A stretch of 64,000 bases of DNA, from NCBI GenBank assembly GCA_038918635.1, contig JBCKZY010000001.1, positions 12,050 through 76,049 of the forward strand, read 5' to 3'. The position numbers and the translations under genes were made by a program. This DNA is from Thermodesulfovibrionia bacterium. GTDB lineage: Bacteria > Nitrospirota > Thermodesulfovibrionia > UBA6902. This document shows, piece by piece, positions 17,740 through 33,447 of this stretch (the stretch's first letter is position 1; every line of letters begins with the position of its first letter). The notes under the pieces were generated by a model, which was not told the origin of the DNA, did no database searches, and saw only the letters and a list, made by a program, of their open reading frames with translations.

Positions 17740-18384
17740 CTACCTTCTCAGTTTAGGAAAAAACCTGCCGGTCTTTTGTATATATTCTCTGTACCCGGCT
17801 CCATGAGTGTCGATAAGATACGCCTCCTCGTCATTAGTCATTATAGAGACACAGGTATAGTGAATAATAAGGATTATCAGGGAAAATAATGTGGGAAGAA
17901 GACAGGCCATCCCCATGAGAATCAAAATCTGAAATGAATAGATCGGGTGCCGCACAAAGCGGTATATCCCATGATTTACAAGGACGGTCTTAACTTTACT
18001 GTTGACGCCCAGTCTCCAGGAATTACCGATCAATGCATAACACCAAAGAGTTCCGGCATAACCAGCCAGAGCCAGCAGAATACCTATAACAACTCCAGGG
18101 GGGATAAAGAGAGGTTCCGGATAAGAAAATAATGTAGTATGCCGGTAATAATGAATAACAAGAGGCTGCCCCAACCATCCCCCGATTATAATGAACCAGC
18201 CCAAAGATAACAGCTTCTCTTTAAGTGTCCTGTACTTCATCAGATTGGGGGAGCCGCCGATATTCCTGCGAACGCGATAGACATTAATGACGACACCGCC
18301 CCAGTATATTAAGGCAGATATAAGGACAACCGCCTCTCTCATGATTGAAGACTTATCTGACATTCGCGGTCTGTCGTCTGGCAA
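17740..18384 (-). CDS. Membrane methyltransferase, ICMT/PEMT (isoprenylcysteine carboxyl methyltransferase) family
   Basis: Multi-TM protein with GIYRFVRHPIYSFQILILMG (the RHPxY motif). The start is uncertain (ATGs at 18384, 18363 and 18342). It overlaps or abuts the upstream gene. Confidence 0.65.
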   Translation of the reverse strand: MPDDRPRMSDKSSIMREAVVLISALIYWGGVVINVYRVRRNIGGSPNLMKYRTLKEKLLSLGWFIIIGGWLGQPLVIHYYRHTTLFSYPEPLFIPPGVVIGILLALAGYAGTLWCYALIGNSWRLGVNSKVKTVLVNHGIYRFVRHPIYSFQILILMGMACLLPTLFSLIILIIHYTCVSIMTNDEEAYLIDTHGAGYREYIQKTGRFFPKLRR

Positions 18385-19429
18385 GTATAAGGCGCTTCAG
18401 TTCAAGGACCCAGTGTTTCTTGATGCTATACCATACATCCGCTGCCCACAGGATATGTTTACTTGAAGAGCTAAAGGTAACGGTCATCTCTGGTTCCTCT
18501 TCCGGGATATAATTATTTATCCAGTCCCTTATCTCCCGATCCTCTGCAAGATGCTTTGTTCCGGGAATTGTAATATGATTATACCCCAGCGGCAATTTTA
18601 CATTCCGGACCCTGGCCTTACCGTTTGCCTTAAACTTATTCATAGAGCCAAAGCCTAAATAATCGCCTCCGAGTAAATCCATCCCCATATAAAATCCTGT
18701 AAACTCTTCTACTGAATCCGGGATACTTCTCAGCCTGCCTATCATACTCCATTGATTTGGCAGAAGCCTGGTAAAGCCTCCGGCGCCGACAGCTGTTACA
18801 TATGACAACTTCATGTCTACAACAGGTAGTGATACCCCCGTAAGAGGATCTATAATATAAGTTCTATCCTCTTTCTCTTTTATTAAAGGATTCCAGACAG
18901 GCACTTCTTTGCTGAAGTTTCCTGCCAATATATGAAGGACCTTTACAGCCTGTATACCTCCCTGGCTATGTCCTACCATCATCGGCCTCATCCCCTCTCT
19001 TTCGTAATACCAGGCAATCAGTCCAGCGAGTTTTTCACTGCCGAAATAACAGCTATAAGAGTAGGTCCCGTCAATTGGACTGCGAATACTCTCTTCCGGA
19101 TAACCCATTGAGATCACTAATTCAGAGAAAGATTTCATGAGCATCTTCATAAAGAAGATCGGATATACCCCGCCATGTATATTTACAATCCTCGGGGCAG
19201 GCGCATTCGACAGGACCTCTTTTATATCTTTTTCTGTTATATTTTCAGGATCAAGAGCCAGTATCTTTTCCTCTAACGCAGGGGCAAGAGAATATTGCCG
19301 AAGAACTGTCCCTTTCTTTATTTCCTTTATAGGATAGTTATAAGTATATTCTGAAGTTGTAGTTGCACAGCTGCCTGCAAAAACCACAAAAAAGAATAAA
19401 AATATTATAAGAATATGATTTTTCTTCAT
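18353..19429 (-). CDS. Probable lipoprotein with alpha/beta-hydrolase (lipase/esterase-like) nucleophile motif
   Basis: N-terminal signal with ...VVFAGSC. GHSQG nucleophile elbow in MMVGHSQGGIQAV. Its start overlaps the upstream stop by 4 nt. Confidence 0.55.
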   Translation of the reverse strand: MKKNHILIIFLFFFVVFAGSCATTTSEYTYNYPIKEIKKGTVLRQYSLAPALEEKILALDPENITEKDIKEVLSNAPAPRIVNIHGGVYPIFFMKMLMKSFSELVISMGYPEESIRSPIDGTYSYSCYFGSEKLAGLIAWYYEREGMRPMMVGHSQGGIQAVKVLHILAGNFSKEVPVWNPLIKEKEDRTYIIDPLTGVSLPVVDMKLSYVTAVGAGGFTRLLPNQWSMIGRLRSIPDSVEEFTGFYMGMDLLGGDYLGFGSMNKFKANGKARVRNVKLPLGYNHITIPGTKHLAEDREIRDWINNYIPEEEPEMTVTFSSSSKHILWAADVWYSIKKHWVLELKRLILARRQTANVR

Positions 19430-20727
19430 GTTTGCATTATGTCCGGATTAGATATATATTTTGAATAATCTGAAATGATTTTTGCAATATCATCTTTAGA
19501 AAAAACGGTTTTTCTGTAACTTACACCAACATTCAAGACATCTTTGACCGTGGTCAGAGAAAATACAAGCGGGGTAACGGGCCCTGTTGAAACGGCCCTG
19601 AAGTAGTCTATTAGGGCCTTATCTTCAGTTTGATCCCAGATGGTGTTTAAATTTATATTAGATATGCCACCACACAGAGGATAATTCTTTGAGTAGAAAT
19701 TGTTGCGCCGCTTTCTGAAAAAAAAGGTGAGCAAAAAAAGAGCCAGGGCCTGGTCTAAAATTGTCCCGAGATAAAGCTTATCTCTCTTTATCTTCTCTGT
19801 GCGTAAGTGTATATCCTTTGCAAGGTCCTCAACTGGGATCCCTTCAGGTACGGAATGCGATATATTAAATGAACCCAGGAACATTCCAAATTTCCCGCAG
19901 TCATCTAAGGCTAAGTCCCTACGTATGTTGACTGAAGACACAACAGAGAGTTTTTTCCGTCTCGGCTCTAATCTTCGTTCTTCAGCCAAAGGAGAGAGGG
20001 TCTTCAGAATAATGGCAATAAAGACGTCATTCAGTGTTACACCCCAGCCCTTTGCCTTTTTTATCAGTGGTTGAAACCGCGGGGCACCGATAGAGAAATA
20101 GGCAAAGCCTACGCTCTGGTCGTTATAATCCGAATACCTCGGCCTGAAGGACGCCCTTAGGTCGGATATGTGTCCCGGAAGGCTGTACACCCATTTAAAG
20201 AGGCGTTTAGGATTAAGTAATGGGAGGCAGCTGAGACTACGCTGATAAAGGTTTAAGGGCTCATCAGGGATTTGAGAATTTCCGTCCATATAAGACCTGA
20301 CAATGCTTTTAAGCAGATAAACAATAGAATCTCCGCCTGAGATAAGATGATAATACACAATACCAAGGTAAAATGACCGCTCTTCAGTGACCGTGAAGAA
20401 CCTGAACGGAGTAATGCTGTCGCTTTTGTCAAAAGGCGTATTTAACTGTCTTTGAACTTCACCGCATAAAACAGGAATAGGGTCACCCTGCCCTTCAATA
20501 ATTTCAATTTCAGTATTTACGCTGCCGCCTTTAAAATGAAACCTCTTCCTCCTCCGGTCAACCTCAAGTCCGGTTAAACCCTTAATCTCCAAACACCTCT
20601 CTACAGTATCTTTCAGCCTTCCTAACTCAAGAGGTTCTGGAACTCTGACTACATGAACAGCATTATATGGGTGTATCTCGTCCCACAGCAATACCGTCCT
20701 TTGAGGAATGTTCAATTTACCTTTCAT
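19426..20727 (-). CDS. Condensation/CAT-fold-like acyltransferase candidate (degenerate HHxxxDG)
   Basis: 433 aa. VYYHLISGGDSIVYLLKSIV aligns by eye to HHxxxDGxS, with the second His retained but the Asp position occupied by Gly. No other motif recognised. Confidence 0.35.
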   Translation of the reverse strand: MKGKLNIPQRTVLLWDEIHPYNAVHVVRVPEPLELGRLKDTVERCLEIKGLTGLEVDRRRKRFHFKGGSVNTEIEIIEGQGDPIPVLCGEVQRQLNTPFDKSDSITPFRFFTVTEERSFYLGIVYYHLISGGDSIVYLLKSIVRSYMDGNSQIPDEPLNLYQRSLSCLPLLNPKRLFKWVYSLPGHISDLRASFRPRYSDYNDQSVGFAYFSIGAPRFQPLIKKAKGWGVTLNDVFIAIILKTLSPLAEERRLEPRRKKLSVVSSVNIRRDLALDDCGKFGMFLGSFNISHSVPEGIPVEDLAKDIHLRTEKIKRDKLYLGTILDQALALFLLTFFFRKRRNNFYSKNYPLCGGISNINLNTIWDQTEDKALIDYFRAVSTGPVTPLVFSLTTVKDVLNVGVSYRKTVFSKDDIAKIISDYSKYISNPDIMQT

Positions 20728-20738
20728 AACTATTCGGG

Positions 20739-21746
20739 TTAATTCTCAGATATCAGATCACTTTTGTCTTTGTACGTCTTCCAGCGATTATGGATCCAGA
20801 GGTACTGTTCCGGGTATTTTCTTATTATCGTCTCCATCGAACGGTTCATCTCACCGGTAAGACGAAAAATTTCAGCCTTCTCACTCTCAAAGCTCCCCGG
20901 GTAGATAGGATCAGAGACGAACCCTTCATAGGCCTGTCCGCCGGCCTTTCTGCAGCATGCCACGACAACAATCGGCCTGTTGTAAGTAATCGCCAAAATT
21001 GCCGGAACAGGGGTTGTCGTGGCCTTGCGGCCGAAATAATCAACGGAAACGCCCTTCATGGTGCTCTGGTCCGGCAGCATGCCGATTGATTTTCCCTGCT
21101 GCAGCATTCTTCGAAGCACAAAAAAAGCGTTCCTCTTTGGAATAATCAACTGTCCGCTGTCGGCTCGATGCGCATAGATAAGCCTTTCGAGGTAAGGGTT
21201 GTCAAGCGGTCTTACAACAACTGCAAGAGTTATTCCGACTACAGCGCTGATCGCCGGAAGGACCTCCCAGTTGCCGATATGCGGCGTTACAAATATACAG
21301 CCGCCTGCGTCATCATGTATTTTTCTGGCCTTTAAAAAGAGTTCATCAAGACCTTCTGTCGAGCGTCTTAGGCTGTTGATGGCATCCGGCCCCGTCAGGA
21401 GGGAACGGGATTTCATAACCTCCAGAAATGTGAGGAAGAATGATTGACAGCTCTGGCGGGCGATTCTCTTTATCTCGCCGTCGCTCTTTTCACCTTTAAA
21501 AGCTTTGCGGAGGTTATCTACAGCTATTTCGCGTCGACGTGCAGCAAGAAGATAAAGCAGATTACCCAGAAAACCGCTCACCGCGTTAAGTGCCCTGAAC
21601 GGCAGTATACCGGAGACCCGGAACAGAAGAGATACCGATATAAATTCGAGTATACAGATTAGCCGGTTTTTTTTTCGCTTTTTTTTCGCCACCCTATGCT
21701 TATGATACATCAAATCGCATGTATGTGTAATATCCTGCGGGACCAA
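20739..21746 (-). CDS. LpxL/HtrB-family (lipid A-type) lysophospholipid acyltransferase
   Basis: N-terminal TM segment, VTPHIGNWEV (HxGNWE), and C-terminal YPEQYLWIHNRWK. The ORF-track start is TTG at 21746; an ATG alternative lies at 21710. Confidence 0.7.
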   Translation of the reverse strand: MVPQDITHTCDLMYHKHRVAKKKRKKNRLICILEFISVSLLFRVSGILPFRALNAVSGFLGNLLYLLAARRREIAVDNLRKAFKGEKSDGEIKRIARQSCQSFFLTFLEVMKSRSLLTGPDAINSLRRSTEGLDELFLKARKIHDDAGGCIFVTPHIGNWEVLPAISAVVGITLAVVVRPLDNPYLERLIYAHRADSGQLIIPKRNAFFVLRRMLQQGKSIGMLPDQSTMKGVSVDYFGRKATTTPVPAILAITYNRPIVVVACCRKAGGQAYEGFVSDPIYPGSFESEKAEIFRLTGEMNRSMETIIRKYPEQYLWIHNRWKTYKDKSDLISEN

Positions 21747-21782
21747 AACTGTAAAGAATTTTGCGATGCCGTGATGTCAATC

Positions 21783-23078
21783 TTATCCCGTTTCAGTGCC
21801 GACCACCACTGATGAAGACTGACCACCTATACCGTAACTGACCGATATAAAATGCTCCTTATCACATTCCTGGGCAGTTCCGGCTATTCTAAGGTCCATA
21901 AATTCACTTTCAGCTTCATTAAAGTTTAGAGTGGCAGGGACCATCCCGTTCTTTACCGCCTTTAATCCAAATATGACCTCTGCGATATCACTTGCCGCGC
22001 CCATATGTCCGGTATACGGCTTCAACCCGCAGACCGGCACATCCTCTCTTTTATTGCCAAGCACCTTATGAACAGAATTCAACTCGGATCTGTCCCCTTT
22101 TCTGGTTCCGCTTCCATGCTGTATGATACAGGCAAGTTCCCCTGCTTCGATTCCCGCCTCATGGAGGGCCATGGTAATACTACGCCTGCTGACTTCCGGA
22201 GGAACCTCGATTCCATGTCCGGATGAGAACTCAATACAGTCTCCAAACCCCTTTATATTTCCGATCGGTTCTGCTCCTCTCTCCCGGGCAGTCTCAGATG
22301 ACTCCAGGAAGAGCGCGGCTCCCCCCTCTCCAGCGATAAAACCATCCCTGGACCTGTCAAAAGGCCTGAAGGAGCCAGCTCCGTCCCTACACCTTGAAAG
22401 TATTCCAAGGCCTTCGAGTTCGTAAAGAGAGAGCTCTGTTATCCAGTTGCAGCACCCTACCGCCATCGCGATATCTGCCTTGCCCTGCTTAATACTCCTG
22501 TACGCGTGTTCAATCGCCTGTCCCCCGCACGGCGAGAGGCTGGCCAGGCTCGTGTTAGGACCCATGAACTCAAAGTATGCTGACAAAAAACTGAACAGGT
22601 TATTATAAATGGACTCAAGCAGAAAAAAAGGATTTACGTTATCCAGAGTGGACCTGTTCAGTTTTTCATAATCCATCTCTTCCCACTTACCGCCGGTTCC
22701 GTCCTTTGTAGCCTGAAACATGAAGTCATACCCCACCTTGGTAAAGTCTCCTGAGCCGATATATAGCGCCCTGCGTTCCGGCGGTATCTTTGACATCTGT
22801 ATCCCGCATTGGGAGACCGCCTCACGGGCTGAGGCAAATCCGAGAAGAGATCCGCGATTAAGGAACTTCATCTGGCTTAACAGCTTGGGAGAAATATCAT
22901 CCGGGTTTTTAAAATTACTCACCTTGCCGGCATATGTTAAAAAGTCGGGCGCGTCATCCTTAGGGTAATGCAAGATACCCGTCTTCATCGCGCTCATGTT
23001 CTGCCAGTTCTCCTCAACACTGCCGCCAAGGGACGTTACAAGCCCGGCGCCGGTTATAACAACTTCTCTCTCCTTCAT
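21783..23078 (-). CDS. Beta-ketoacyl synthase paralogue with Ser at the catalytic Cys position (KS variant)
   Basis: KS fold throughout. NTSLASLSPCGGQAIE aligns with NTSIVSACAAGAQAIG of the neighbouring KS, placing Ser where Cys is expected. Both His contexts are retained (QHGSGT, TGHMG). Confidence 0.7.
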   Translation of the reverse strand: MKEREVVITGAGLVTSLGGSVEENWQNMSAMKTGILHYPKDDAPDFLTYAGKVSNFKNPDDISPKLLSQMKFLNRGSLLGFASAREAVSQCGIQMSKIPPERRALYIGSGDFTKVGYDFMFQATKDGTGGKWEEMDYEKLNRSTLDNVNPFFLLESIYNNLFSFLSAYFEFMGPNTSLASLSPCGGQAIEHAYRSIKQGKADIAMAVGCCNWITELSLYELEGLGILSRCRDGAGSFRPFDRSRDGFIAGEGGAALFLESSETARERGAEPIGNIKGFGDCIEFSSGHGIEVPPEVSRRSITMALHEAGIEAGELACIIQHGSGTRKGDRSELNSVHKVLGNKREDVPVCGLKPYTGHMGAASDIAEVIFGLKAVKNGMVPATLNFNEAESEFMDLRIAGTAQECDKEHFISVSYGIGGQSSSVVVGTETG

Positions 23079-23080
23079 TA

Positions 23081-23533
23081 TTATAAATTTAACTCCCTGG
23101 TCAAAAGCTGAAAAAATCTCTTCTGATCGCTCACATCTTCAATCTCAGATAGCGGCACAATTTCTCCCTCAAATTCCGTTCTGATCTTCTTCTTACCGTG
23201 TACCGTCCCGACTCCGGAGTAGACCCTGATATCCGTCTCCTTATCGGATATATTCCTCACCTCAAGCTCTACCTGGTCGCCGGGAAGGGCAAAGCCGTAA
23301 AAATTACTTTTTCTAACTTTGTTGATCAGAAACCAGCTGGTAAAGTCCGAAGAGGCCGCCTCAAGCCAACCGGCTAACTGGGCAAGAGACTCCAAAAGCA
23401 TGACTCCCGGCATAATGGGGTTTTTGGGGAAATGGAACTCAAGGAAATCCTCACTCATGGCAACGTTCTTGACCCCCCTGATCAACTCGCCGGACTTATA
23501 CTCAGTGATATGATCGATCAATAAGTAACGCAT
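23081..23533 (-). CDS. FabZ/FabA-like hot-dog beta-hydroxyacyl-ACP dehydratase
   Basis: FLEFHFPKNPIMPGVMLLESLAQLAG (His and Glu contexts). 150 aa. It ends 2 nt before the next gene starts. Confidence 0.75.
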   Translation of the reverse strand: MRYLLIDHITEYKSGELIRGVKNVAMSEDFLEFHFPKNPIMPGVMLLESLAQLAGWLEAASSDFTSWFLINKVRKSNFYGFALPGDQVELEVRNISDKETDIRVYSGVGTVHGKKKIRTEFEGEIVPLSEIEDVSDQKRFFQLLTRELNL

Positions 23534-23825
23534 CGTCTTTTATGCCCCCCATGATGTAATACCTTTCTCACCTAGAACCATGTTATAACTCATCAGATAG
23601 ACTCTGATCCCGCGCTTACAGCTGTGTTACATGGTGGTCTCTGATAATGAACTACCCCGCAGCAGAGCTGCAAGGTATCTCCCCTCCCCCCGATAAAAGA
23701 CTCGGGACAGGCCCGTCAAGGGGGAGGGAAATTGGATTAACCCCGATGCAAAACATCGAGGAATTCTCTTGATTAAACTGTTTCCTGTATCAAAAAAAAT
23801 ATATTTGTTTGGATAAAAACCAGTT

Positions 23826-24224
23826 TCATGATACATCTGCCTTATCACCCATCAGGATTACGGTTGCAACAGCATACTGTGCCGAATGTGAAATGGAGAC
23901 GGTTAACTGTCGTATCTTCTTCTTTCTGCCCATCTTTTCCGCCCAGCCGCTAATCGAGAGCCCGGGTTTCCCCGAAGGAGTTGAAGAGACCTCGATCTCC
24001 TGAAGCGTGTTATCAATACCGGAAAGCCCCATGCCCAGCGCCTTCATACATGCCTCTTTCGCGGCAAACCTGCCCGCGAAATGTTTATAAGGCTCTTTCA
24101 TGGAAAGACAGTACTTCCTTTCGCCTTCAGTAAATATTTCTGAAACCAGGTCCTTATTCCTCAAAAAGAGATCAGCAAACTTCGGTATCTCTACAAGGTC
24201 AACTCCCTGATATACCTGCATCAT
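23826..24224 (-). CDS. acpS: Holo-ACP synthase (AcpS-type 4'-phosphopantetheinyl transferase)
   Basis: GVDLVEI, FTEGERKY, FAGRFAAKEACMKALG, ISHSAQYAVATV. 132 aa. 4-nt overlap with the upstream KR gene. Confidence 0.8.
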   Translation of the reverse strand: MMQVYQGVDLVEIPKFADLFLRNKDLVSEIFTEGERKYCLSMKEPYKHFAGRFAAKEACMKALGMGLSGIDNTLQEIEVSSTPSGKPGLSISGWAEKMGRKKKIRQLTVSISHSAQYAVATVILMGDKADVS

Positions 24225-24973
24225 GAGATACTTAACCCCCCATCAACAGATATTGTCTGCCCTGTTACATAGTCTGCCATGTCAGAAGCAAGAAAGAGCA
24301 CAAGGTTTGCAACATCCACCGGCTCACCAAACCTGCCCAGAGGGATCCGCTCAAGGATACTTTCACCTGCCCTCTTTCTGACACGGGTGCTCATCTCTGT
24401 ACGGATCATCCCCGGCAATACTGCGTTCACCTGAATCCCCCTTGATGCCAGTTCAACTGCACATGCCCGGGTAAAAGCGGTTAACCCTCCTTTTGAAGAC
24501 GCGTAATTCGTCTGCCCGCGTCCACCCCGTATCGCGCCGATCGAGGCGATATTGATAATCTTTCCGGAGCGGCCGGCCATCATCATCTCCCCGGCTCTCC
24601 GGGTGCAGAGGAAAGCTCCCCTAAGGTTAACATTGTGGACATCGTCCCAGTCTGAGAGCTCCATCGCGAACAAAAGATTGTCTTTGATAATCCCGGCATT
24701 ATTAACAAGTATATCCAGTCTGCTGAAACCATCACTTATATATTGAAAAAGCGCTTCAACCTCTTCGGGTTTGGATATATCCGCCTGAAAAATATCAGCG
24801 GAATGTCTTTTCTCTAATATCTCGTCTCTCAGCTCCGCGGCCTGTTTTTCGGACCTGCTGAAATTAATGATAACCTTTGCACCTGCTTCTGAAAGGCGCA
24901 GGCATATCTCTCTTCCGATCCCGCGTGCCCCACCTGTTACAAGGGCAACCTTATCTGATAAATTAATTTGCAT
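24221..24973 (-). CDS. 3-oxoacyl-ACP reductase (FabG-like SDR)
   Basis: TGGARGIG, NNAGI, and the YASSKGG (YxxxK) catalytic motif. 250 aa. Confidence 0.8.
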   Translation of the reverse strand: MQINLSDKVALVTGGARGIGREICLRLSEAGAKVIINFSRSEKQAAELRDEILEKRHSADIFQADISKPEEVEALFQYISDGFSRLDILVNNAGIIKDNLLFAMELSDWDDVHNVNLRGAFLCTRRAGEMMMAGRSGKIINIASIGAIRGGRGQTNYASSKGGLTAFTRACAVELASRGIQVNAVLPGMIRTEMSTRVRKRAGESILERIPLGRFGEPVDVANLVLFLASDMADYVTGQTISVDGGLSIS

Positions 24974-25106
24974 ATTTTATCTCCATGCGGCAATGTTCGT
25001 TTTTCAAATATCTATTATAGACCGAATAGTATTAATTTTGGTTCTACCGGCTTTTGTGTAGATTGTTCTGTCAACTACACCATACAAAAGAGCAGATCGC
25101 ATATTT

Positions 25107-25165
25107 CCCCTCTTTTGCAAAGACCAGTTGCTCCGCCCCGAGGCGAGGGGGGCAGGGGAGATTTT
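25107..25165 (+). repeat. 58-bp conserved repeat core (copy inside the lipid cluster)
   Basis: See 17556-17613. It is embedded in a roughly 300-bp composite repeat filling the KR-KS intergenic gap 24974-25369. Confidence 0.85.
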
Positions 25166-25369
25166 ATGAATAATAAAGAGTTCCATATTCTTTTCCTTTA
25201 CACTTAAGACTCTATTCAAGCAAAGCATAATCTATGAAATCCCCCTCTATCCCCCTTTACTAAAGGGGGAGGTTAAAATAACATCCTACATAACTGAAAA
25301 GATTACATAAGTTTATAAGTTGTTTCCACACTATTGCTGAAAGAACCTTAATTTTATATCTTTATATTT

Positions 25370-26668
25370 TTACCAGCTATCCCGCACCCTATATTTTCTT
25401 ACAACAACAGTAGCATTTTGCCCGCCAAAACCAAAAGAATTCGATAGCGCGGCATTAACCGTTCCTGCCCTTTTTCCCTCGGCAACATAATCAAGGTCAC
25501 ACTTCGGGTCCGGGTTCGTAAGATTGATTGTCGGATGTATTTCATCCCGGTTAACGCTCAGGACTGTATAGATAAACTCTGGGCCGCCTGCCGCCGCGAT
25601 CAGGTGTCCTATCATTGATTTACTCGAGCTGATCGGCAGATTATAGGCATGATCACCAAAGACCTTCTTGATCGCCAGGGTTTCCGTGCTGTCATTCAGT
25701 TTTGTGCCGGTCCCATGAGCATTAATATAATCCACTTCCCCGGGCCTCATGCCTGCATCCTCAAGTGACGACCGCATTGCCCTCTCGGCCCCCCGACCCT
25801 GAGGGTGCGGCGCTGTTACCTGAAACGCGTCCATGCTTGTGCCATAACCGGCAACCTCCGCATAGATCCTTGCCCCTCTCTTCAGCGCCCTGCCTTCCTC
25901 TTCAAGGACAACCACCCCCGCGCCTTCCCCCATCACCAGCCCGGACCTCTTTCTGTCAAAAGGTCTGCATGCTTTCTCCGGGGACTCAGATGAGATCGCC
26001 GCCGCTTTTAAAAGCACAAATGTAATAAGCCCTACCGGGTTAATCATTGAATCAGCGCCGCCGGCCAGGATCATTTCTGCGTCACCTCTCCGGATCATTC
26101 TGTATCCCATACCGATTGCCTGAGTAGCGGCGGCACATGCTGAAGTTATTGTTGCGTTGTAACCGTTTAATCCATACTTTCTGGCTATCAGAGCAGAAGG
26201 TCTGTTTGAATTATTTCGTATCAGTGATTCCCTGTGGACCGAACCGTATTCTCTGCCGAACCTGCGGTAATCGAAGGTGCCGTCGCCGTCCGTCCAGCGC
26301 TGGAGATCTTCAGGCCTGTTTATGCCGAGCCCTGCGGCGAGAATTACTCCGCAGCGATCTGTACCGCCGTCATGATTCAAACTGCCCGAATCACCAAGTG
26401 CTGAATGAGCCGCCCATAAGGCAAAGAGGGTCCTCCTCTCTCCTTCAGCATCAGCCTCTCTCTTAAGAGCGCCCCTGATACTCTTCAGGTCATCCTCTTT
26501 CACCCCGCCTGCCGCCTTAACGGGCAGACCAACCGAACCGGGCAAAGAGATGCTTTTAATTCCTGATTCTCCAGCGAGGACACTCTTCCAGTTCTCTTCA
26601 ATATGCAGACCGAGCGGGGTGACGATCCCGAGTCCGGTAATAACAACCCTTTTCCTACTGCTCACCAT
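25370..26668 (-). CDS. Beta-ketoacyl-ACP synthase, FabF-like, canonical Cys-His-His
   Basis: TSACAAATQAIG (Cys), NAHGTGTKLND (His), SKSMIGHLIAAAG (His), C-terminal SFGFGGQNA. Confidence 0.85.
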   Translation of the reverse strand: MVSSRKRVVITGLGIVTPLGLHIEENWKSVLAGESGIKSISLPGSVGLPVKAAGGVKEDDLKSIRGALKREADAEGERRTLFALWAAHSALGDSGSLNHDGGTDRCGVILAAGLGINRPEDLQRWTDGDGTFDYRRFGREYGSVHRESLIRNNSNRPSALIARKYGLNGYNATITSACAAATQAIGMGYRMIRRGDAEMILAGGADSMINPVGLITFVLLKAAAISSESPEKACRPFDRKRSGLVMGEGAGVVVLEEEGRALKRGARIYAEVAGYGTSMDAFQVTAPHPQGRGAERAMRSSLEDAGMRPGEVDYINAHGTGTKLNDSTETLAIKKVFGDHAYNLPISSSKSMIGHLIAAAGGPEFIYTVLSVNRDEIHPTINLTNPDPKCDLDYVAEGKRAGTVNAALSNSFGFGGQNATVVVRKYRVRDSW

Positions 26669-26671
26669 GAC

Positions 26672-27115
26672 TTATCTGTTCCGGATACCGCTGTAATATC
26701 GGAACTTTTCTTTAAGCTCATCAGGGCTTATCCGCTGAAAATGAGTGTAAATTGTACGGTTCATAGAAGCGATAAGCTTACCTTCTGAGTACATCTCCGC
26801 TCTGCCCAGAGTATCTCTTTTGGACGTTGATATGATCTCAGCGTGGATCTCGGCTGTAAAACCGGGCCTTAATTGAGCTGAAAAATGGACGTCTTCAATC
26901 AAAGACATAATGGCCGCGAGTTTGAAGTCATGTGAATACATGATCAGCCATCCAAGGAGCTGCGCCATCGCCTCAATCATGATGACTCCGGGCACAAGGG
27001 CAACTTTGCTGAAGTGCCCTCTCAGAAACTCCTCGGAAAGGGCAAATGATTTGACCCCCCTGATAGAAGCGCCCTTCTCTATACTGTCTACCCTGTCATA
27101 AAATAAAAACCGCAT
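26672..27115 (-). CDS. FabZ/FabA-like hot-dog dehydratase (second copy)
   Basis: FLRGHFSKVALVPGVIMIEAMAQLLG. 147 aa. Confidence 0.75.
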   Translation of the reverse strand: MRFLFYDRVDSIEKGASIRGVKSFALSEEFLRGHFSKVALVPGVIMIEAMAQLLGWLIMYSHDFKLAAIMSLIEDVHFSAQLRPGFTAEIHAEIISTSKRDTLGRAEMYSEGKLIASMNRTIYTHFQRISPDELKEKFRYYSGIRNR

Positions 27116-27395: not shown

Positions 27396-28673
27396 CTAAA
27401 CAGCCTCAATAATCAGGGAAGCACACTGCCCTTCATAACTCTGGCAGTTTACCATAATACGGCCTGATTTTTTCTTTAACGGCACGTCACTGACAAGTTG
27501 AAACCTGATCTCTTCATCCAGCGGTTCCGGTGTTAGGACCGCGGGAATGACGCCATTCTCAATCATATAAAGAGCAAGGATGACATCAACGGCCGGAGCA
27601 CCGGCATACATATGTCCCAGAGCGCTCTTTGATGAATACACAGTTATTGTATCGACACAGTCTGAAAAAACGGTATGGACCGCCTCCATCTCATTGGCAT
27701 CGCCCCGGTGCGTTCCGTCCCCGTTCGCAATAATAACATCTATATCTTTTGCGTCTACCCCTGCCTTCTCCAAAGCGGCCCGCATCGAACGGGTAATCGC
27801 GTCTGTCGTCGGAGCCGGATAATCTTTCCCCATCCCGAAAGAAGATCCATAACCGGTAATCATAGCCCTGTACGGGATACCGCGGTCATCCGCGGAGGAT
27901 TTCAGCTCAAGCGCGATCATGCCGCACCCTTCGCCCGGAACAGTCCCATTCCGGTCCGCGCTAAAAGGTCTGCAAGGGTTTTTATGGTCGGAGTCTTTTG
28001 TATTCAGGGTGTTTGACAGGTGGGCACGTGCAAGGCCTGATGGTGAGACCTTTTCGCTTACACCCCCGGCAAGAACCACCTTCGCCCTTTTATCGATAAG
28101 GACCTCAACCGCTTCTGAAATCGCCTGTATCCCTGAGTCGGCATGAGGGGAAAATACCGCGTTTTCACCCCGTATATCAAGACTGATGGCAACCTGACAG
28201 AAGCTTATATTATTGAGCATGGAGAGAGGCCAGAGGGGAAAGATCTCCTGATACCCTTCTGAGAAGAACTTTTCATAGCTGAAATTTCCCTGAGAATCTC
28301 TTGATTTCAGGACAGCCGGAAGCAGGTCATCCACCTTATAGTCAACCATTCCCATACCGGCAAATAGTCCTATCTCCTCTCCCGGGATACCCTGTCTGGC
28401 GATACCGGCCTGCGCGTAAGCGTCATGCGCGCATTTCATCAGCATAAAGGAGTGTTTGTCCATGATCCGGGCATCCCGGGGATGTATCTCCAGACCTGCA
28501 ACGTCAAGCCCGTTAACCTGCGCCGCCACACAACAGTCAAAACCGCTTGCGTCAAAATCTTTAATGGGCTTTATGCCGCTTCTGCCGGCAAGCAGAGAAT
28601 CCCATGTCTCCCGTGCCGTATGCCCGAGAGAACTTATAAGCCCCGTACCTGTCACTACGATACGATCGTCCAT
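27396..28673 (-). CDS. KS-like chain-length-factor-type protein (catalytic Cys replaced by Ala, first His lost)
   Basis: KS fold, but ENAVFSPHADSGIQAIS aligns Ala at the Cys position. IANGDGTHRGD replaces xAHGTGT. The second His is retained (ALGHMYAG). Confidence 0.7.
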   Translation of the reverse strand: MDDRIVVTGTGLISSLGHTARETWDSLLAGRSGIKPIKDFDASGFDCCVAAQVNGLDVAGLEIHPRDARIMDKHSFMLMKCAHDAYAQAGIARQGIPGEEIGLFAGMGMVDYKVDDLLPAVLKSRDSQGNFSYEKFFSEGYQEIFPLWPLSMLNNISFCQVAISLDIRGENAVFSPHADSGIQAISEAVEVLIDKRAKVVLAGGVSEKVSPSGLARAHLSNTLNTKDSDHKNPCRPFSADRNGTVPGEGCGMIALELKSSADDRGIPYRAMITGYGSSFGMGKDYPAPTTDAITRSMRAALEKAGVDAKDIDVIIANGDGTHRGDANEMEAVHTVFSDCVDTITVYSSKSALGHMYAGAPAVDVILALYMIENGVIPAVLTPEPLDEEIRFQLVSDVPLKKKSGRIMVNCQSYEGQCASLIIEAV

Positions 28674-29007
28674 AAATAAAATAATACAGGATGCGGGATG
28701 TGGGATACAAGGCAGAAGAGTATTGATTGTGGGCAGAAGACTTACTTTTTCTACAGGATATATTTATTGTTTTTTCTGTTTATAATGCTGCAATCTAGGC
28801 GTTGAGTACTGTTATCTTCTATCCTAAAACCTGTAAAAATTGAAGGTTGCAAAAAGTAATCTTGTCTCCCCAACACCAAGCTGATATAATGATGGCAGTA
28901 CGAATAAAATACTCTTTAATATATTAAAGTCAGAAAGTGGAAATATTGATGTGGAACTATCACCGCTTATCCCTCCCCTGAGATATATCCCTACACGCAA
29001 CAAAATG

Positions 29008-29035
29008 TTGCAAAAAAAAGCTTCTGGCCTATAAA
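29008..29035 (+). promoter_or_regulatory. Candidate sigma70-type promoter for 29074-29739
   Basis: TTGCAA, a 16-nt spacer, then TATAAA, about 40 nt upstream of the ATG. A gcaaca-aaa-tgttgc palindrome overlaps the -35. Pattern match only. Confidence 0.3.
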
Positions 29036-29073
29036 ATCTAATTGATAATGAAATCAATTTTTTATCATATAAA

Positions 29074-29739
29074 ATGGATATAAGGGAATTAGGCAATTAT
29101 TTTAATGAACTGTTAACCATGGAGAAATTAATCGAAGCTTTTTCTACAAAAAAGAAAGCTTATATTAAAACAGAATCATTGAAAGGTATACCTGAATCTG
29201 ACCTCGATTCAACTCAATTTGATAGAATTATTGATAGTCGCTATAATGATCATGAGAAAGTTGCAACATCATTTATAGAAGCATTAGATGCTATTACAAA
29301 TTGCCCCCTTGTTGTTCAGCCAAAAGTTCAAGAAGGAGAGACATACACTATATCGATTATACCAACAGAAAAAGGGCATCCTTATTTAAGTGAATATCAA
29401 CGTGATAAGGACATTGCAATCCTATTGACTTACCTTGGATTAGTTGCTAACAACTCATCAAATGATAGTGGATGGAGTGAAGAACAATTAGCTCACTTCG
29501 ATTTAGTTAATTTATATAAAACTCAATGCTTAGCAACAAGGATAAATGAATTTTACATTCATTTAAATCCTAAAGATGAAACAGATAGGATATATCTGCC
29601 TGGCAATGGATTTGTAACTGACGAAAAGAAGAATAAACTCCTAACTAAAGAATTCTATGAAAGAGCCATTGCAACCCTTACGAAATTGGAAAAATTAGTT
29701 GCGCCTAGATTGGAATTAACAATATATCCTATTGATTAG
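29074..29739 (+). CDS. Hypothetical protein (orphan), opposite strand, in an AT-rich insert inside the lipid cluster
   Basis: 221-aa ORF with no motif I recognise. The local sequence 28680-29870 is visibly much more AT-rich than the flanking KS genes. Confidence 0.5.
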   Translation: MDIRELGNYFNELLTMEKLIEAFSTKKKAYIKTESLKGIPESDLDSTQFDRIIDSRYNDHEKVATSFIEALDAITNCPLVVQPKVQEGETYTISIIPTEKGHPYLSEYQRDKDIAILLTYLGLVANNSSNDSGWSEEQLAHFDLVNLYKTQCLATRINEFYIHLNPKDETDRIYLPGNGFVTDEKKNKLLTKEFYERAIATLTKLEKLVAPRLELTIYPID

Positions 29740-29879
29740 ATAAGATTTGGGGTCAGCCGTTCGTATTATGGACGGCCCTTTTGTTATTACTGTTTCAACC
29801 AATAATCATCAACATCCCAATGCTCCAAAATTGATGAGTAGTAGGTGTATTCACAATTGGCGGGGCAATCCTTAAAACC

Positions 29880-31176
29880 TTATTCCTCAAACGCCCCTAA
29901 ACAGAGGCACGCGTTTTGTCCGCCGAATCCAAAGGAGTTTGAGATGGCCCTGCGGTGAGCCTGCTGCCTTGCTTCATTCGGAACGTAATCAAGCCTGCAC
30001 TTCGGGTCGCGGAACTCATAATTGATGGTTGGGAGTATGAGAGAACTGTTTATTCCCACAAGGGTCAGGATCGCCTCAATAGCGCCTGTCGCGGCTATGG
30101 TATGTCCGAGCATCGACTTGTTTGAGCTGACGGGAATCTCCTTTGCCCTCTCTCCAAAGACCTCCTTAATGGCGTATGTTTCCCCGATGTCATTCTGAGT
30201 GGTTGATGTGCCGTGAGCGTTGATATAGTCTATATCATCCGGTAAAAGCGATGCATCTTCCAGCGCCCCGCGCATGGCAAAGATAGCCCCCCCTGCCTTT
30301 CGGATGCGTATCGGTAATCCTGTAGGCATCCGCTGACGCGCCATATCCCAGAAGCTCTCCGAGGATCGGCACTCCCCGTGACCGGGCATGTTCCAGCTCC
30401 TCCAGTACCATTGCTCCCGCCCCCTCTGACATGACAAACCCGTTTCTCTTGCGGTCAAAGGGCCTTGACGCCTCCTGAGGAGTGCTGTATTTTTCGCAAA
30501 GCGCGCGTATCAGGACAAACCCGACAAAGCCGGTAAAATTCAGGTCGGCCTCACAGCCGCCGGCAATCATTACATCACTCCTGCCTTCCTGTATCATTCT
30601 TTGCGCCTCCCCGATCGCCTGCGCGCCCGCGGCACAGGCAGATACGATGGAAGTATTAACTCCCTTGCAGTTGAAGAGTATTGAGAGAATGGCCATGGCG
30701 GCGTCAGGTTTTCTGCGGAAGAAGTTCAGGTAGGAATACCCCCCGGCCTTCATCAGCCCCCTGATATCCCAGTTGCCTCTGCCGTCAAAAAACCGGTGAG
30801 CAAACATCATGTCCTCTACAGAAGGGGTATCACCATGAGAACCGAGTGAAACGCCGATCCTCTCACGGTCTTCTACTTCATCAAGCCTGGCCTGCCCGGC
30901 CGCCTCAAGGGTAGCGATCCTCATCAGCCTGAGGGCCCGGGATGACACCTTATCAAACCGGTGAGCGGTATTGTCTTCAATATCTTCCAGCCATCTGTCA
31001 TCAATCTCTCCACCGATTCGACACGGCAGGCCGGTTGTGTCAAATGACTTTATATAATCTATTCCGGACTCTCCTTTACTGGCTTTCTCAAAGGTCTCCT
31101 CCGTGTTCTTCCCAAGCGGGGTGACCATCCCGTACCCTGTAATGACCACCCTGCGTTTATTTGAACTGTCTGTCAT
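29880..31176 (-). pseudogene. Beta-ketoacyl-ACP synthase, FabF-like (Cys-His-His), interrupted by a frameshift in a C7/G7 homopolymer
   Basis: ORFs 30235-31176 and 29880-30458 are the N- and C-terminal parts of one KS (SACAAGAQAIG; [11 protein letters not shown]; [11 protein letters not shown]). The frames switch at 30287-30293. Removing one base gives [20 protein letters not shown]. Confidence 0.8.
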
Positions 31177-31269
31177 AGCATCCTGTCACTTTGAATTATT
31201 AGTGAAGCTCTCCACCTACAAGGCGGGGATTCAAAAGAATATTTCATTAATGATTATTCAATTTGTATT

Positions 31270-31328
31270 CCCCTCTTTAGCAAAGACCCGTTGCTCCGCC
31301 CCGAGGCGAGGGGGGCAGGGGAGATTTT
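31270..31328 (+). repeat. 58-bp conserved repeat core, within a ~270-bp composite element (31190-31460) homologous to 55240-55545
   Basis: Shared flanking modules: ...ctacaaggcgg..., the core, then aatcccc..tt.gaaaaggggg, then cttttcatc.ccgtttacaaaacggggtatt.aagtt. Confidence 0.8.
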
Positions 31329-31822
31329 TATAAAGGAATTATTCATAAAATCCCCCTCAATCCCCCTTTTCCAAAGGGGGGAGAACAATAAGGAAAACTT
31401 TTCATCCCCGTTTACAAAACGGGGTATTCAAGTTCTTTATTCATAAAATTAGACACAAATTATACGATTCTTGCTACTCTTTCCTTTATTCTGTCATTCC
31501 CCGACGGAGTCGGGGAATGACACTAGTTGTAGGATATGTGAAGCGGTTGAAAGAATAGATTTCGACACCTTAAGAGCGGCATTATCTAGCCTGTCCCGCC
31601 TGTCCCGATTCTTCGGGGATACTTCGGGGCTTGTAGAACATTCACCTCTAAGGTGATTAAATACTTACCCGCTTCGCCGAATCGAGGCGAGCAGGCGCAA
31701 TCGGACAAATCCCATCGAGTTATCTATTCTTGTCCGCCACATTATGTATAATGTGGCGAGATCTCGCCTTAGGCGGAAAAGCGCTTTGCATAACCACATT
31801 GCTAATTAATCACTAAATTGGA

Positions 31823-32386
31823 TTAAAATATCTTCTTCTCTTCCTGTACCTTTGTGAGCCATTCCTTGATAAGATCATCACCATTCATAAAGACGGCATT
31901 TTCTCCACATGATCCGCATTTAACACGCACACCATCCTCGGATTTCCATTCCGATTTTCCACAGTGTGAACACTGCTCGGGAAGGCTGTCAAGGACGTCC
32001 ATCACCCCCGCTGACATTGACCCTGCTGTTACGAACGAAGGGATTTCGTCCATATCCATCCCTGCGCTTAATCCTGCAAGGTTCTCCCCCAGCCTCTCTT
32101 TTAAAAGTACGATCGCCTTCTCTGTCAACCTACCATCTTCATCGATCGCAGAGCCTTCACCGAACATCTCCTCAACATGCTCAAGGACAAAATGTCGCGC
32201 CATCTTGATCCCGAAGGCCTGTTCAAGCCTGTAGTTTATATCCAGAAAGTCCAGGGATTCAGCTCCCAGGTCACCTATTAAAGAACTTTCTTTCTTTATT
32301 GCGTCCTCATCGACCCTTAGTGTCTCAATAATTGCCTTCTTAAGTTCATCAAAGACCTTCTCTTCAGTAATAAGATTCTGCTTCAT
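31823..32386 (-). CDS. Acyl carrier protein fused to a C-terminal extension ending in a CxxC...CxxC zinc-ribbon-like motif
   Basis: DLGAESLDFLDINYRLEQAFG (phosphopantetheine Ser context), then about 120 extra residues ending in CSHCG-x14-CGSCG. AAGGGGG RBS before the ATG at 32386; the track's upstream start at 32449 lies in a repeat. Confidence 0.7.
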   Translation of the reverse strand: MKQNLITEEKVFDELKKAIIETLRVDEDAIKKESSLIGDLGAESLDFLDINYRLEQAFGIKMARHFVLEHVEEMFGEGSAIDEDGRLTEKAIVLLKERLGENLAGLSAGMDMDEIPSFVTAGSMSAGVMDVLDSLPEQCSHCGKSEWKSEDGVRVKCGSCGENAVFMNGDDLIKEWLTKVQEEKKIF

Positions 32387-32667
32387 AATGCCCCCTTTAT
32401 TTATAATTTTGCCACTGACCCGCTTCGCCGAAGCGAGGCGAGCTTTCACAGACTAAAAAATAAAATATAAATAAGAAAAGCCTGTTTTCTCTTTTGTTCT
32501 GTTTTAAGTCTTAACTTTATTTAAGTCTGTGTAAATCTGTACACGATGCATAAAGCAGAGTGACTAAGTGTTTGTTGTTTTCTTATGTTTTTGTCTCTAC
32601 GTTAAAAGTCTGTGTGAATCTGTGGCAAATTATCTTTTATTTTGTCTTCATTCGTGTAAATTCGTGG
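32387..32667 (-). repeat. Composite hairpin element (cacagactt word family), same orientation as transcription; homologous to 46211-46385
   Basis: It shares what looks by eye like an identical ~75-nt core (cacagacttaaataaagttaagacttaaaacagaacaaaagagaaaacaggcttttcttatttatatttt) flanked by inverted gccacaga..cacagact words. The 3' arm is interrupted by a 27-bp mini-palindrome. Confidence 0.8.
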
Positions 32668-33447
32668 CTAAATCCCCTTAGGAGGACGGTAAAGCCTGTT
32701 GCTAAGGCCCCTGTCCACCACGATGGTCTGACCGCGAATCCCCCTGCTAGCCTCACTGCACAAAAACAGTACAGCATCGGCTATCTCATCAGTATCAACT
32801 ATAAGCTCTTCAGGTATCTGTTCAATCTCTTCCATATGCTGTCTTAAAACCTTAAAGGAGTCTGTCTTAACAATACCGCCGCAAACCCCGTTAACTGATA
32901 CACCCTTTTCGCCCAAGCTCTCCGCGCAGTCCCTTACAACAGCCTCCATCGCCGCCTTCATACTGCCCAGAGGATAGGAGGGGTTGTAAAAACGGCTCCC
33001 AAGGCTTGAAATAAATACAATACTGCCTTTGCTCTTCTGAAGAAGCGGAAGCGCCTCCTGAATACAGAAGATATTTCCAAAGAAGTTGGTCTCAACCAGC
33101 TGTCTGAGCTCGCGCTCAAGGAGCCTCTCAATTGATTTAAAAGGCGCTTTTGCGGCGTTTAAGATAAGGAAGTCTAAACCGCCGCACTTCTCTTCTGTCT
33201 CTTTCAGCAGGCCTTTAACCTCTCCCTTAATCGATATGTCCGCCTGCACCAGAAAGGCGCGGCTCCCTGCATCCTGCATCTCCCTGCATAACCCTTCTCC
33301 TCTTTCCCGGGACCGGCCCCCGGCCGTTCTGTTGTTAATAACAACATCCGCTCCGGATAGGGAAAATCTTCTGGCAATGGCGGCGCCGATACCGCGCGTA
33401 CCGCCTGTTACAAGAGCAACCTTATTACTGAAAGGACGATTCTGCAT
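32668..33447 (-). CDS. SDR-family oxidoreductase, FabL-like (candidate enoyl-ACP reductase)
   Basis: TGGTRGIGAAIA, NAAKAPF, ISSLGSRFYNPSYPLGSMKAAMEA and VNGVCGGIVKTD resemble B. subtilis FabL (ISSLGS...Y...SKAALEA, VNAVSGGAIDTD) as I recall it. KR versus ER cannot be settled by eye. Confidence 0.55.
   Translation of the reverse strand: MQNRPFSNKVALVTGGTRGIGAAIARRFSLSGADVVINNRTAGGRSRERGEGLCREMQDAGSRAFLVQADISIKGEVKGLLKETEEKCGGLDFLILNAAKAPFKSIERLLERELRQLVETNFFGNIFCIQEALPLLQKSKGSIVFISSLGSRFYNPSYPLGSMKAAMEAVVRDCAESLGEKGVSVNGVCGGIVKTDSFKVLRQHMEEIEQIPEELIVDTDEIADAVLFLCSEASRGIRGQTIVVDRGLSNRLYRPPKGI

Follow-up and report, generated by a model that had tools for sequence, protein, structure and literature searches.

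A type II fatty acid synthase-like gene cluster of a Thermodesulfovibrionia bacterium, with an LpxL/LpxM-family acyltransferase gene at the end of its conserved core

Overview

The DNA described here is a 64-kb stretch of a Thermodesulfovibrionia contig (JBCKZY010000001.1, positions 12,050 to 76,049), hereafter the window, which carries at positions 17740–33447 of its minus strand a cluster of genes resembling those of a type II fatty acid synthase (FAS). We favour, with modest confidence, the view that this region is a dedicated type II FAS-like elongation system whose product is handed on by an LpxL/LpxM-family enzyme and most likely becomes a secondary (acyloxyacyl) chain of lipid A. A first-pass annotation of the window had proposed a dedicated type II FAS/polyketide synthase (PKS)-like lipid cluster with four ketosynthase (KS) paralogues and an LpxL-type acyltransferase, and that proposal is supported here. 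Its suggestion of a lipid-A-like acceptor is independently backed by the neighbouring genes in related loci (L001, L006, L007 and L098/L099), and its remark that no characterised cluster has such a content agrees with our literature searches, which found none. Likewise, no characterisation was found in the literature on the cluster itself, on Nitrospirota lipid A or on Thermodesulfovibrio hydroxy fatty acids. Family assignments were made using Pfam and NCBIfam profile searches, with structure models added for the tail proteins; L-numbers (L001–L102) denote the related contigs or loci that were compared with the window.

Gene content and organization

Fourteen cluster genes and the TrmB-family gene upstream of them, all on the minus strand, were confirmed in position and family by Pfam, NCBIfam and structure models, in agreement with the earlier gene list. 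The core opens with a FabL/FabI-like short-chain dehydrogenase/reductase (SDR; 32668–33447; adh_short_C2, 164 bits), a probable enoyl-ACP reductase (ENR). It is followed by a dedicated acyl carrier protein (ACP; 31823–32386; PP-binding) of 187 amino acids, in which an N-terminal ACP domain (DLGAESLD) is joined to a C-terminal extension of about 100 residues with the pattern CxxC...CxxC. Next are KS1 (29880–31176), an active-type ketosynthase split into two open reading frames (ORFs) by a frameshift and 431 amino acids long when repaired; an inactive KS paralogue resembling a chain length factor (CLF; 27396–28673); DH1 (26672–27115), a FabZ-like 3-hydroxyacyl-ACP dehydratase (FabA domain, 54 bits, and FabZ matches in NCBIfam); KS2 (25370–26668), an active, FabF-like ketosynthase; a FabG-like 3-ketoacyl-ACP reductase (KR; 24221–24973); and an AcpS-type phosphopantetheinyl transferase (23826–24224; TIGR00516, 78 bits, cutoff 59.8). 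The core is completed by DH2 (23081–23533), a second FabZ-like dehydratase recognized by Pfam and by the FabZ models of NCBIfam; KS3 (21783–23078), a KS paralogue with Ser-Pro in place of Cys; and the last core gene, which specifies an LpxL/LpxM-family acyl-ACP-dependent acyltransferase (20739–21746; Lip_A_acyltrans, 160.7 bits, full length). An accessory tail comprises genes for a free-standing condensation-domain protein of the PapA5/nonribosomal peptide synthetase (NRPS) C type (19426–20727), a lipoprotein with a GHSQGG motif (18353–19429), and an integral-membrane methyltransferase of the ICMT/PEMT family (17740–18384).

The first-pass annotation had described many overlaps or gaps of 11 nt or less. 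This holds for six junctions, namely DH1/KS2 (3 nt), KR/AcpS (4-nt overlap), DH2/KS3 (2 nt), LpxL-like/condensation-like (11 nt), condensation-like/lipoprotein (4-nt overlap) and lipoprotein/methyltransferase (overlap), but not for five others, which contain spacers of 280–1206 nt. The DH1-KS2 and DH2-KS3 pairs are translationally coupled. In compact relatives all of the intergenic gaps are 10–60 nt.

Conservation and variants

The core order SDR-ACP-KS1-CLF-DH1-KS2-KR-(AcpS)-DH2-KS3-LpxL was recovered from at least 13 independent long contigs at 55–93% identity; loci sharing it are L004, L005, L006, L010, L011, L020, L023, L026, L030, L032, L037 and L048. The high-GC contig L100 also has the core order, at 44–56% identity. 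The ratio of nonsynonymous to synonymous substitution rates (dN/dS), computed against the closest relative (L004, a 93%-identical contig from a Thermodesulfovibrionia metagenome-assembled genome (MAG)), is 0.06–0.18 for all 11 shared genes, which indicates purifying selection. The most conserved of them is DH2, which is 98% identical to its L004 counterpart with a dN/dS of 0.058. KS3 has hundreds of homologues at 60–75% identity, the named sources of which are Nitrospirae/Nitrospirota, Thermodesulfovibrionales, Dissulfurispiraceae and Nitrospinota, the rest being unclassified MAGs. The cluster is a real, conserved operon of the Nitrospirota and Nitrospinota.

The LpxL-like gene constantly marks the 3' end of the core, with variable genes beyond it. 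Those for the condensation-like protein, the lipoprotein and the methyltransferase were found only in the window, L004, L009, L011, L018, L040 and L042. Since they are confined to so few loci they constitute an accessory module rather than part of the conserved core, and they are a lineage-specific tailoring module of one sub-clade. In another direction, locus L024 (4986–6808) has lost KS2, and its CLF-like gene is replaced by an opposite-strand gene for a dual-specificity phosphatase; with its other genes intact, it is a degenerate version of the cluster.

A third variant is found in Nitrospinota and marine Nitrospirae (L005, L006 and L008), where a co-oriented gene for a B12-binding radical-SAM (S-adenosylmethionine) protein lies between DH1 and KS2. 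In L005 (6007–7311) its product has 434 amino acids and includes DUF4070. These variants suggest that in those lineages the chain is methylated or undergoes some other modification by radical chemistry. They also raise the idea that the system makes an exotic branched, cyclised or ladderane-like lipid by radical chemistry on the chain, the window carrying a reduced version, an idea which gains something from the report that divergent FabF paralogues and B12-radical-SAM genes also mark the clusters of anammox bacteria and Desulfotalea (PMC2649909). The radical-SAM gene is, however, absent from the window and most loci; no phytoene-desaturase-like, CoA-ligase or MMPL genes such as occur in the anammox/Desulfotalea clusters are present; and mid-chain methylation would be a simpler role for a single radical-SAM methylase. 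Of the explanations that we weighed we give this one the least credence. The anammox/Desulfotalea "ladderane" clusters themselves were rejected as a match, having another parts list (CoA ligase, MMPL, a phytoene-desaturase-like protein and several SAM enzymes) and sharing the B12-radical-SAM theme with the Nitrospinota variants only.

Ketosynthases, dehydratases and reductases

With E. coli FabF (C164/H304/K336/H341) as reference, the active sites read C/H/K/H in KS1 and KS2, A/N/K/H in the CLF-like protein and S/H/K/H in KS3, as had been called previously. In the CLF-like protein, as judged from Pfam and the FabF residue alignment, the Cys is replaced by Ala (motif SPHADSG) and the first His by Asn. 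Aromatic type II PKSs have a Gln at the CLF active site, where it serves in decarboxylative priming; that Gln is missing here. KS1 and the CLF-like gene are adjacent in all compact relatives, so that an active KS stands beside a Cys-less paralogue in the manner of a KS-alpha/CLF pair, and the CLF-like protein is presumed to be the heterodimer partner of KS1. It is the most divergent core product across the loci (39–60% identity).

Among 120 homologues of KS3 the Ser, the Pro next to it and the His/Lys/His residues are invariant, while the Cys two residues further on varies. KS variants with Cys replaced by Ser or Gln retain decarboxylase activity. We propose that KS3 acts as a malonyl-ACP decarboxylase in priming or, as another option, as a Ser-dependent acyl-transfer enzyme. 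In searches of the PDB, FabF was the best match for both the CLF-like protein and KS3, ranking above the actinorhodin (act KS/CLF) and ishigamide (Iga) ketosynthases; both also matched a heteromeric KS pair (9S5H). A neighbour-joining tree that included FabF, ApeO and ApeR placed KS1 and KS2 inside the FabF radiation and the CLF-like protein and KS3 on separate long branches.

The SDR has FabL as its top NCBIfam model (183.6 bits, under the cutoff of 328). Leu occupies the position of the classical YxxxK Tyr, and a Tyr is found six residues before the conserved Lys, a spacing like that of the ENRs FabI and FabL; from these residues the protein is probably an enoyl-ACP reductase. With such a reductase present, a largely saturated chain is more to be expected than a polyene. 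Both dehydratases retain the catalytic His and Glu of FabZ. AcpS occurs in most relatives, being absent from L005, L006, L023 and L032.

KS2 and KR come close to housekeeping enzymes. KS2 scores 443.5 bits with the FabF equivalog model TIGR03150, below its cutoff of 493.75, and 428.8 bits with the subfamily model NF005589 (cutoff 387); KR scores 285.1 bits with TIGR01830 (cutoff 297.75) and 251.6 bits with NF009466 (cutoff 222). Could the cluster then be the organism's housekeeping FAS, set beside lpxL as fabZ is in the lpxD-fabZ-lpxA operon elsewhere? The AcpS protein passes the acpS model, and the core-genome context together with strong purifying selection would fit such a role. Against it, none of the FabF, FabG and ACP proteins reaches equivalog level, and neither fabH nor plsX nor fabD was found in the window or the related loci. 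The ACP, with its 187 residues and Cys4 extension, is only about 35% identical to E. coli AcpP over 49 residues, and a canonical AcpP is required by many other pathways. Moreover, two of the four KS paralogues are unable to condense normally, and the loss or replacement of KS2 and CLF seen in L024 would be lethal if this were the sole FAS. We consider a housekeeping role highly improbable. The cluster had also been termed self-contained. A search for FabD (malonyl-CoA:ACP transacylase), FabH and ACC genes found none, either in the cluster and the window as a whole or at a distance of up to 10 kb from the cluster in about 40 related loci, and because of this the term has to be given up.

The extended ACP family

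Alignment of orthologues indicates that the ACP most likely starts at 32386, giving 187 amino acids, and not at the GTG at 32449. Its NCBIfam scores (42–49 bits) are below all of the cutoffs (66–106), and in a profile search it matched the "specialized ACP" RPA2022 (PDB 2KW2) with 48.7 bits, no better than ordinary ACPs. The C-terminal extension had no match in the PDB in a search whose query profile was biased by the inclusion of E. coli AcpP. In a search of 1.84 billion representative proteins, the ACP-plus-extension architecture emerged as a separate family, whose full-length relatives number in the dozens (50% clustering), some having as little as about 25% identity. Wherever the context was inspected, the genes of this family were always neighboured by those for a KS and for an inactive partner KS.

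Two of these contexts are instructive. On a GC-rich metagenomic contig (L098, 177–4792, and L099) the order is KS(Asp)-KS-ACP-SDR-lpxA, with an ACP 31% identical to that of the window; lpxA begins 3 nt after the SDR gene and its product passes the NCBIfam equivalog cutoff (297 versus 226). The genes there might serve to provide 3-hydroxyacyl-ACP specifically for the opening step of lipid A synthesis. In L101 (1756–11608) and L102, an arrangement like that of the koreenceine genes kecA-H is headed by a 189-residue ACP of the same extended family, matching the window ACP over its full length, extension included, at 29% identity, and KS/CLF pairs come next. The extension appears to be a general feature of ACPs which work with these KS/CLF pairs. 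Since it stands beside KS/CLF in both pairs of loci, several lipid pathways make use of the ACP/KS-CLF module, and at least two of these pathways end in lipid A acyltransferases.

The acyltransferase and its acceptor

The LpxL-like protein exceeds the PF03279 cutoff of 22.3 bits by a wide margin (160.7 bits) and covers positions 5–295 of the 295 in the profile. Its PHIGNWE motif aligns with PHFGTWE of Acinetobacter baumannii LpxM, the H-x4-E dyad, and that protein is its best PDB match; an N-terminal hydrophobic segment at residues 29–50 would serve as membrane anchor. Three lineages place the gene near lipopolysaccharide (LPS) functions. In L001, DH2-KS3-LpxL is followed 3 kb downstream by lpxB-waaA-lpxK. 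The LpxL-like gene of L006 and L007 converges on that of an ABC exporter, the best model of which is MsbA (508–519 bits, cutoff 602), in a neighbourhood that also includes a Wzy_C/WaaL-like gene and glycosyltransferases.

Several observations weigh against lipid A as the acceptor. The LpxL-like protein is below the cutoffs of all NCBIfam lipid A acyltransferase models (at best 144.9 bits versus 273), and PF03279 includes enzymes that do not act on lipid A, such as PatA. Of about 14 long loci only 3 have LPS genes adjacent, the window and most of its relatives being flanked by unrelated housekeeping genes; in four further loci the genes downstream of the LpxL-like gene have no LPS functions and are unrelated apart from MlaC in L030, and in L100 no LpxL gene adjoins the core. 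What we assign to KS3, to the CLF-like protein and to the second dehydratase is guesswork, and both product and acceptor are inferred.

The same chain machinery might accordingly serve another acceptor, such as an acyloxyacyl aminolipid of the ornithine or glycine lipid type or a glycolipid resembling acylated phosphatidylinositol mannosides (PIMs), with the condensation-domain enzyme N- or O-acylating a small head group and the ICMT/PEMT-type enzyme methylating it. PatA, a PIM acyltransferase and member of PF03279, was indeed matched (27.5 bits); PapA5-type C-domain enzymes acylate non-LPS lipids; the methyltransferase resembles ICMT and PEMT equally well; most loci have no LPS genes nearby; and the same ACP/KS-CLF module occurs in the non-LPS pathway of the kec-like locus. 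On the other side, LpxM (42 bits) outscores PatA among the solved relatives of the acyltransferase, and there is the LPS-gene adjacency in three lineages as well as that of lpxA to a distant ACP homologue. In addition, many loci keep the core and the LpxL-like gene without the tail genes, and the tail therefore cannot define the acceptor. We judge a non-lipid-A acceptor to be rather unlikely, if far from negligible, and prefer lipid A.

The accessory tail

The condensation-like protein scores 25 bits with Pfam Condensation, under the gathering threshold of 30.6. A model built from an alignment of 30 homologues (pLDDT 86.8) has the fold of an NRPS condensation domain (Foldseek E 7.6e-22), with a TM score of 0.78 to AzeD and matches to PapA5 as well (E in the range 1e-18 to 1e-22). 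His127 is invariant in the 30 sequences, and the surrounding motif is (F/Y)HxI(A/S)G(A/G)DS as opposed to HHxxxDG. Judging from the model, the protein is probably a carrier-protein-dependent acyltransferase. It thus shares fold and catalytic His with PapA5 and the dehydratase AzeD, from which it differs in motif and in being restricted to a sub-clade.

The lipoprotein, which has no Pfam or NCBIfam match, belongs to a set of 2677 homologues that are all annotated as "hypothetical" and none of which has a Pfam domain. Invariant features are the lipobox Cys C21 (AGSC), G153–G158 (GHSQGG), and D251/D256 and H285 as candidate Asp and His partners of the nucleophile. In a model with a pLDDT of 85 the GHSQGG motif lies between a strand (150–154) and a helix (156–168), and Foldseek returned weak lipase/esterase matches, the best with an E of 7e-3 and TM scores of at most 0.3, none reaching an E of 0.001. 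The model suggests a divergent alpha/beta-hydrolase-like fold, and the protein would act outside the cytoplasm.

The methyltransferase is above both cutoffs in Pfam (PF04140 ICMT, 39.9 bits, cutoff 24; PF04191 PEMT, 38.8 bits, cutoff 25) and has four or five hydrophobic segments. Like Leptospira LmtA, the lipid A 1-phosphate methyltransferase, and ICMT it is a polytopic membrane protein of the ICMT/PEMT fold encoded beside lipid-modifying genes. It differs in that it scores only 31 bits with the LmtA model (cutoff 325), the generic isoprenylcysteine methyltransferase model being higher (62 bits). A methyl-esterified product had been predicted in the first-pass annotation. As a general product this is not supported because the tail is found in one sub-clade only; it would at best be a lineage-specific decoration, on an acceptor carboxylate or phosphate.

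Comparison with known systems

The cluster had initially been likened to those for aryl polyenes (APEs). As in the APE cluster of E. coli CFT073 and the flexirubin and xanthomonadin clusters, it is a type II system with a KS and inactive partner, two hot-dog dehydratases, a KR, one or more dedicated ACPs, a methyltransferase and a lipid acyltransferase. The product could then be a pigment of this type, that is, a membrane-anchored and methyl-esterified polyene or partly reduced polyene. Two database results lean the same way: the DH2 orthologues carry the precomputed Pfam family PF22818 "ApeI-like", and KR scores 238 bits with the flexirubin FlxB model, under the cutoff of 340. A direct comparison by BLASTP with the real ape cluster of CFT073 (L013) and with the FAS and LpxL genes of E. 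coli gave a different picture. Every window protein is closer to its E. coli homologue (FabF, FabG, FabZ, AcpP or LpxL) than to ApeO, ApeR, ApeQ, ApeP or ApeI. For each of the four KS paralogues FabF outscores both ApeO and ApeR; KR is 41% identical to FabG and 33% to ApeQ; DH1 and DH2 match FabZ and not ApeI or ApeP, their NCBIfam models being those of FabZ only, against which stands the ApeI-like Pfam family of the DH2 orthologues; the ACP is closer to AcpP than to ApeE or ApeF; and neither ApeD nor ApeC, a 240-residue CLF, had any match. Nor does any KS group with ApeO or ApeR in the neighbour-joining tree. As was noted at the outset, there are no aryl-priming, thioesterase, LolA or MMPL parts, and none was found in a Pfam scan of the ORFs between 16.8 and 34.4 kb; the ApeH adenylase, an ammonia lyase and GT2 are lacking as well. 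The cluster possesses an AcpS and an ENR-like reductase, the latter as a conserved core gene, and its acyltransferase is LpxL-type rather than PlsC-type like ApeD. We therefore rejected the APE assignment on this comparison, and an APE-type pigment seems very unlikely.

In logic, the nearest characterised system is, on our best reading, the rhizobial acpXL-lpxXL cluster, of which the window cluster would be an enlarged counterpart; the first-pass annotation had not mentioned it. The acpXL-fabZXL-fabF2XL-fabF1XL-adhA2XL-lpxXL cluster of rhizobia and Agrobacterium makes 27-OH-C28:0, the very-long-chain fatty acid of lipid A, and similarly has a dedicated ACP, a FabZ-type dehydratase, at least two FabF paralogues, an extra dehydrogenase and an LpxL-family gene in last position (PMC11901934). 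Neither cluster includes FabD or FabH, and both rely on the housekeeping FAS. The window cluster differs in having four KS genes (among them the inactive CLF-like and the Ser variant), two dehydratases, and a KR and AcpS of its own, in an SDR-type instead of a zinc-ADH-type reductase, in the 187-residue ACP with Cys4 extension, and in belonging to a different phylum. The likeness is one of layout; the window ACP and acyltransferase are below the NCBIfam cutoffs. The acyltransferase shares with A. baumannii LpxM (PDB 5KN7) the full-length PF03279 domain, the N-terminal anchor and the H-x4-E dyad; it is about 25% identical to E. coli LpxL and, as a point of difference, sits in an operon with its own acyl-donor factory.

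For the KS1/CLF pair a plausible model by analogy is the koreenceine type II PKS (kecA-K) of Pseudomonas koreensis, where KS/CLF pairs, working on a dedicated ACP, have been proposed to lengthen a C10 primer that comes from the FAS (PMC6498172). The likeness comes through L101/L102, which begin with an ACP of the extended family and were assigned to the kec type by gene order and not from published sequences. The kec cluster differs in that it ends in a reductase-aminotransferase and makes an alkaloid, and in having no dehydratase, ENR, AcpS or LpxL-type transferase.

Spacers, repeats and neighbouring genes

KS1 is split by a single extra G, the window having a run of seven at about 30293 and L004 a run of six with an intact gene of 431 codons. 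The repaired protein is 94% identical to that of L004 (dN/dS 0.09), and the extra base reflects a sequencing error or else a slip of very recent date (slipped-strand variation). Between KS1 and the CLF-like gene lies an opposite-strand ORF of 221 codons (29074–29739, plus strand), which has no Pfam or NCBIfam match, is missing from all related loci and is regarded as outside the system. It is found in a stretch of low GC (0.407 across 28–30 kb) and is accompanied by a terminator-like hairpin at 29756–29776. At the same junction L004 (3260–4802) carries two different foreign genes, for a SWIB-domain protein and a DUF5996 protein. As the two genomes have different foreign genes there, the junction is an insertion hot spot.

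A GC-rich dispersed repeat of about 60 nt, with the core GCAAAGACCAGTTGCTCCGCCCCGAGGCGAGGGG, is present in four copies in the window as against an expectation of 0. These are at 17563–17619 (inverted, minus strand), 25101–25165 (plus strand), 31268–31328 and about 55318–55351, and three of them sit in spacers of the cluster. The repeat resembles repetitive extragenic palindromic elements or miniature inverted-repeat transposable elements, and yields spurious short ORFs that share the peptide SAPRRGGRGDF. A near-perfect palindrome of 15 bp, CGCTTCGCCGAAGCG, occurs at 4072, 31670, 32421 and 61727 (four sites, 0.07 expected). Two of these fall in the SDR-ACP and ACP-KS1 spacers; as the element is dispersed, being found also at 4072 and 61727, we rejected it as an operator specific for the cluster. 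Promoter and terminator scans gave results no better than those from shuffled controls.

Immediately upstream of the cluster is the gene for a TrmB-family transcriptional regulator (33627–34442, minus strand; Pfam TrmB, 76.6 bits, and Regulator_TrmB). The AT-rich spacer between it and the SDR gene (33448–33626) contains TTTGTGCCTTTG twice as a direct repeat and GGCACAAAGG once in inverted orientation, which are a candidate operator for the neighbouring regulator. TrmB is possibly a local regulator of the cluster. It stands outside the conserved core: only in the window and L024 is it beside the cluster, the upstream genes of the other relatives being unrelated.

Directly downstream (16805–17398, minus strand) is a gene for a UbiX-family flavin prenyltransferase, and such a gene also trails the cluster in three relatives (L009, L024 and L047), whether or not these have the three tail genes; no UbiD partner was seen nearby. 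This adjacency is probably inherited synteny. Further off, the plus-strand gene at 15064–16386 has an unusual combination of PilZ, DUF4388 and C-terminal DnaJ (J) domains. The sole Rfam/ARAGORN matches in the window are tRNA-Lys(TTT) at 58994–59069 and tRNA-Glu(TTC) at 59215–59292.

Proposed pathway and significance

From family chemistry, on which all of the steps depend, the following pathway may be drawn. AcpS would convert the 187-residue ACP into its holo form, and a housekeeping FabD encoded outside the cluster would load malonate on it. KS3 would then decarboxylate malonyl-ACP to a primer, or otherwise gate the entry or exit of chains. The primer would be made de novo or come from the housekeeping FAS, and chain lengthening would fall to the KS1/CLF-like heterodimer together with the FabF-like KS2, with KR, the two KS-coupled dehydratases and the FabL/FabI-like reductase processing every round to give a largely saturated, probably long or unusual chain. 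At the inner face of the inner membrane, the LpxL-like enzyme would move this chain from the ACP to its membrane acceptor. In the sub-clade of the window, the cytoplasmic C-domain protein might add or join an acyl group, the ICMT-type enzyme methylate a carboxylate or phosphate, and the lipoprotein hydrolase-like enzyme remodel the product after export.

Taken jointly, the observations permit a broader reading, which we put forward as tentative and on balance doubtful. The Nitrospirota, Nitrospinota and some other uncultured lineages would own an unrecognised, vertically conserved "second fatty acid synthase" for the outer membrane, built on a new family of ACP-plus-zinc-ribbon proteins to which KS/CLF pairs are recruited. 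Its product would be a structurally new lipid A chain, modified in some lineages by a B12-radical-SAM enzyme and here by a C-domain acyltransferase, a phosphate/carboxyl methyltransferase and new periplasmic lipoprotein hydrolases. The Ser-ketosynthase would have a non-canonical chemistry, either decarboxylative priming or O-acyl transfer, and the same ACP family would feed LpxA elsewhere, the whole amounting to a general route for separating the acyl chains of LPS from those of phospholipids.

On the reading that we favour, the region offers three uncharacterised families, namely the invariant Ser-ketosynthase, the Cys4-extended ACP that travels with KS/CLF, and the lipoproteins, which number more than 2,000 and have no Pfam model. 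It also counsels caution in genome mining, where clusters such as this are FAS-derived membrane-lipid pathways and not pigment or antibiotic clusters. If the pathway is as we propose, environmentally important and mostly uncultured bacteria, including the sulfate-reducing and magnetotactic Thermodesulfovibrionia and the nitrite-oxidising relatives in the Nitrospinota, would make part of their outer-membrane lipid on a separate, dedicated synthase. An unusual lipid A would be predicted for them, a possible biomarker with possibly altered immune recognition, and the acpXL/lpxXL principle would extend far beyond the Alphaproteobacteria.

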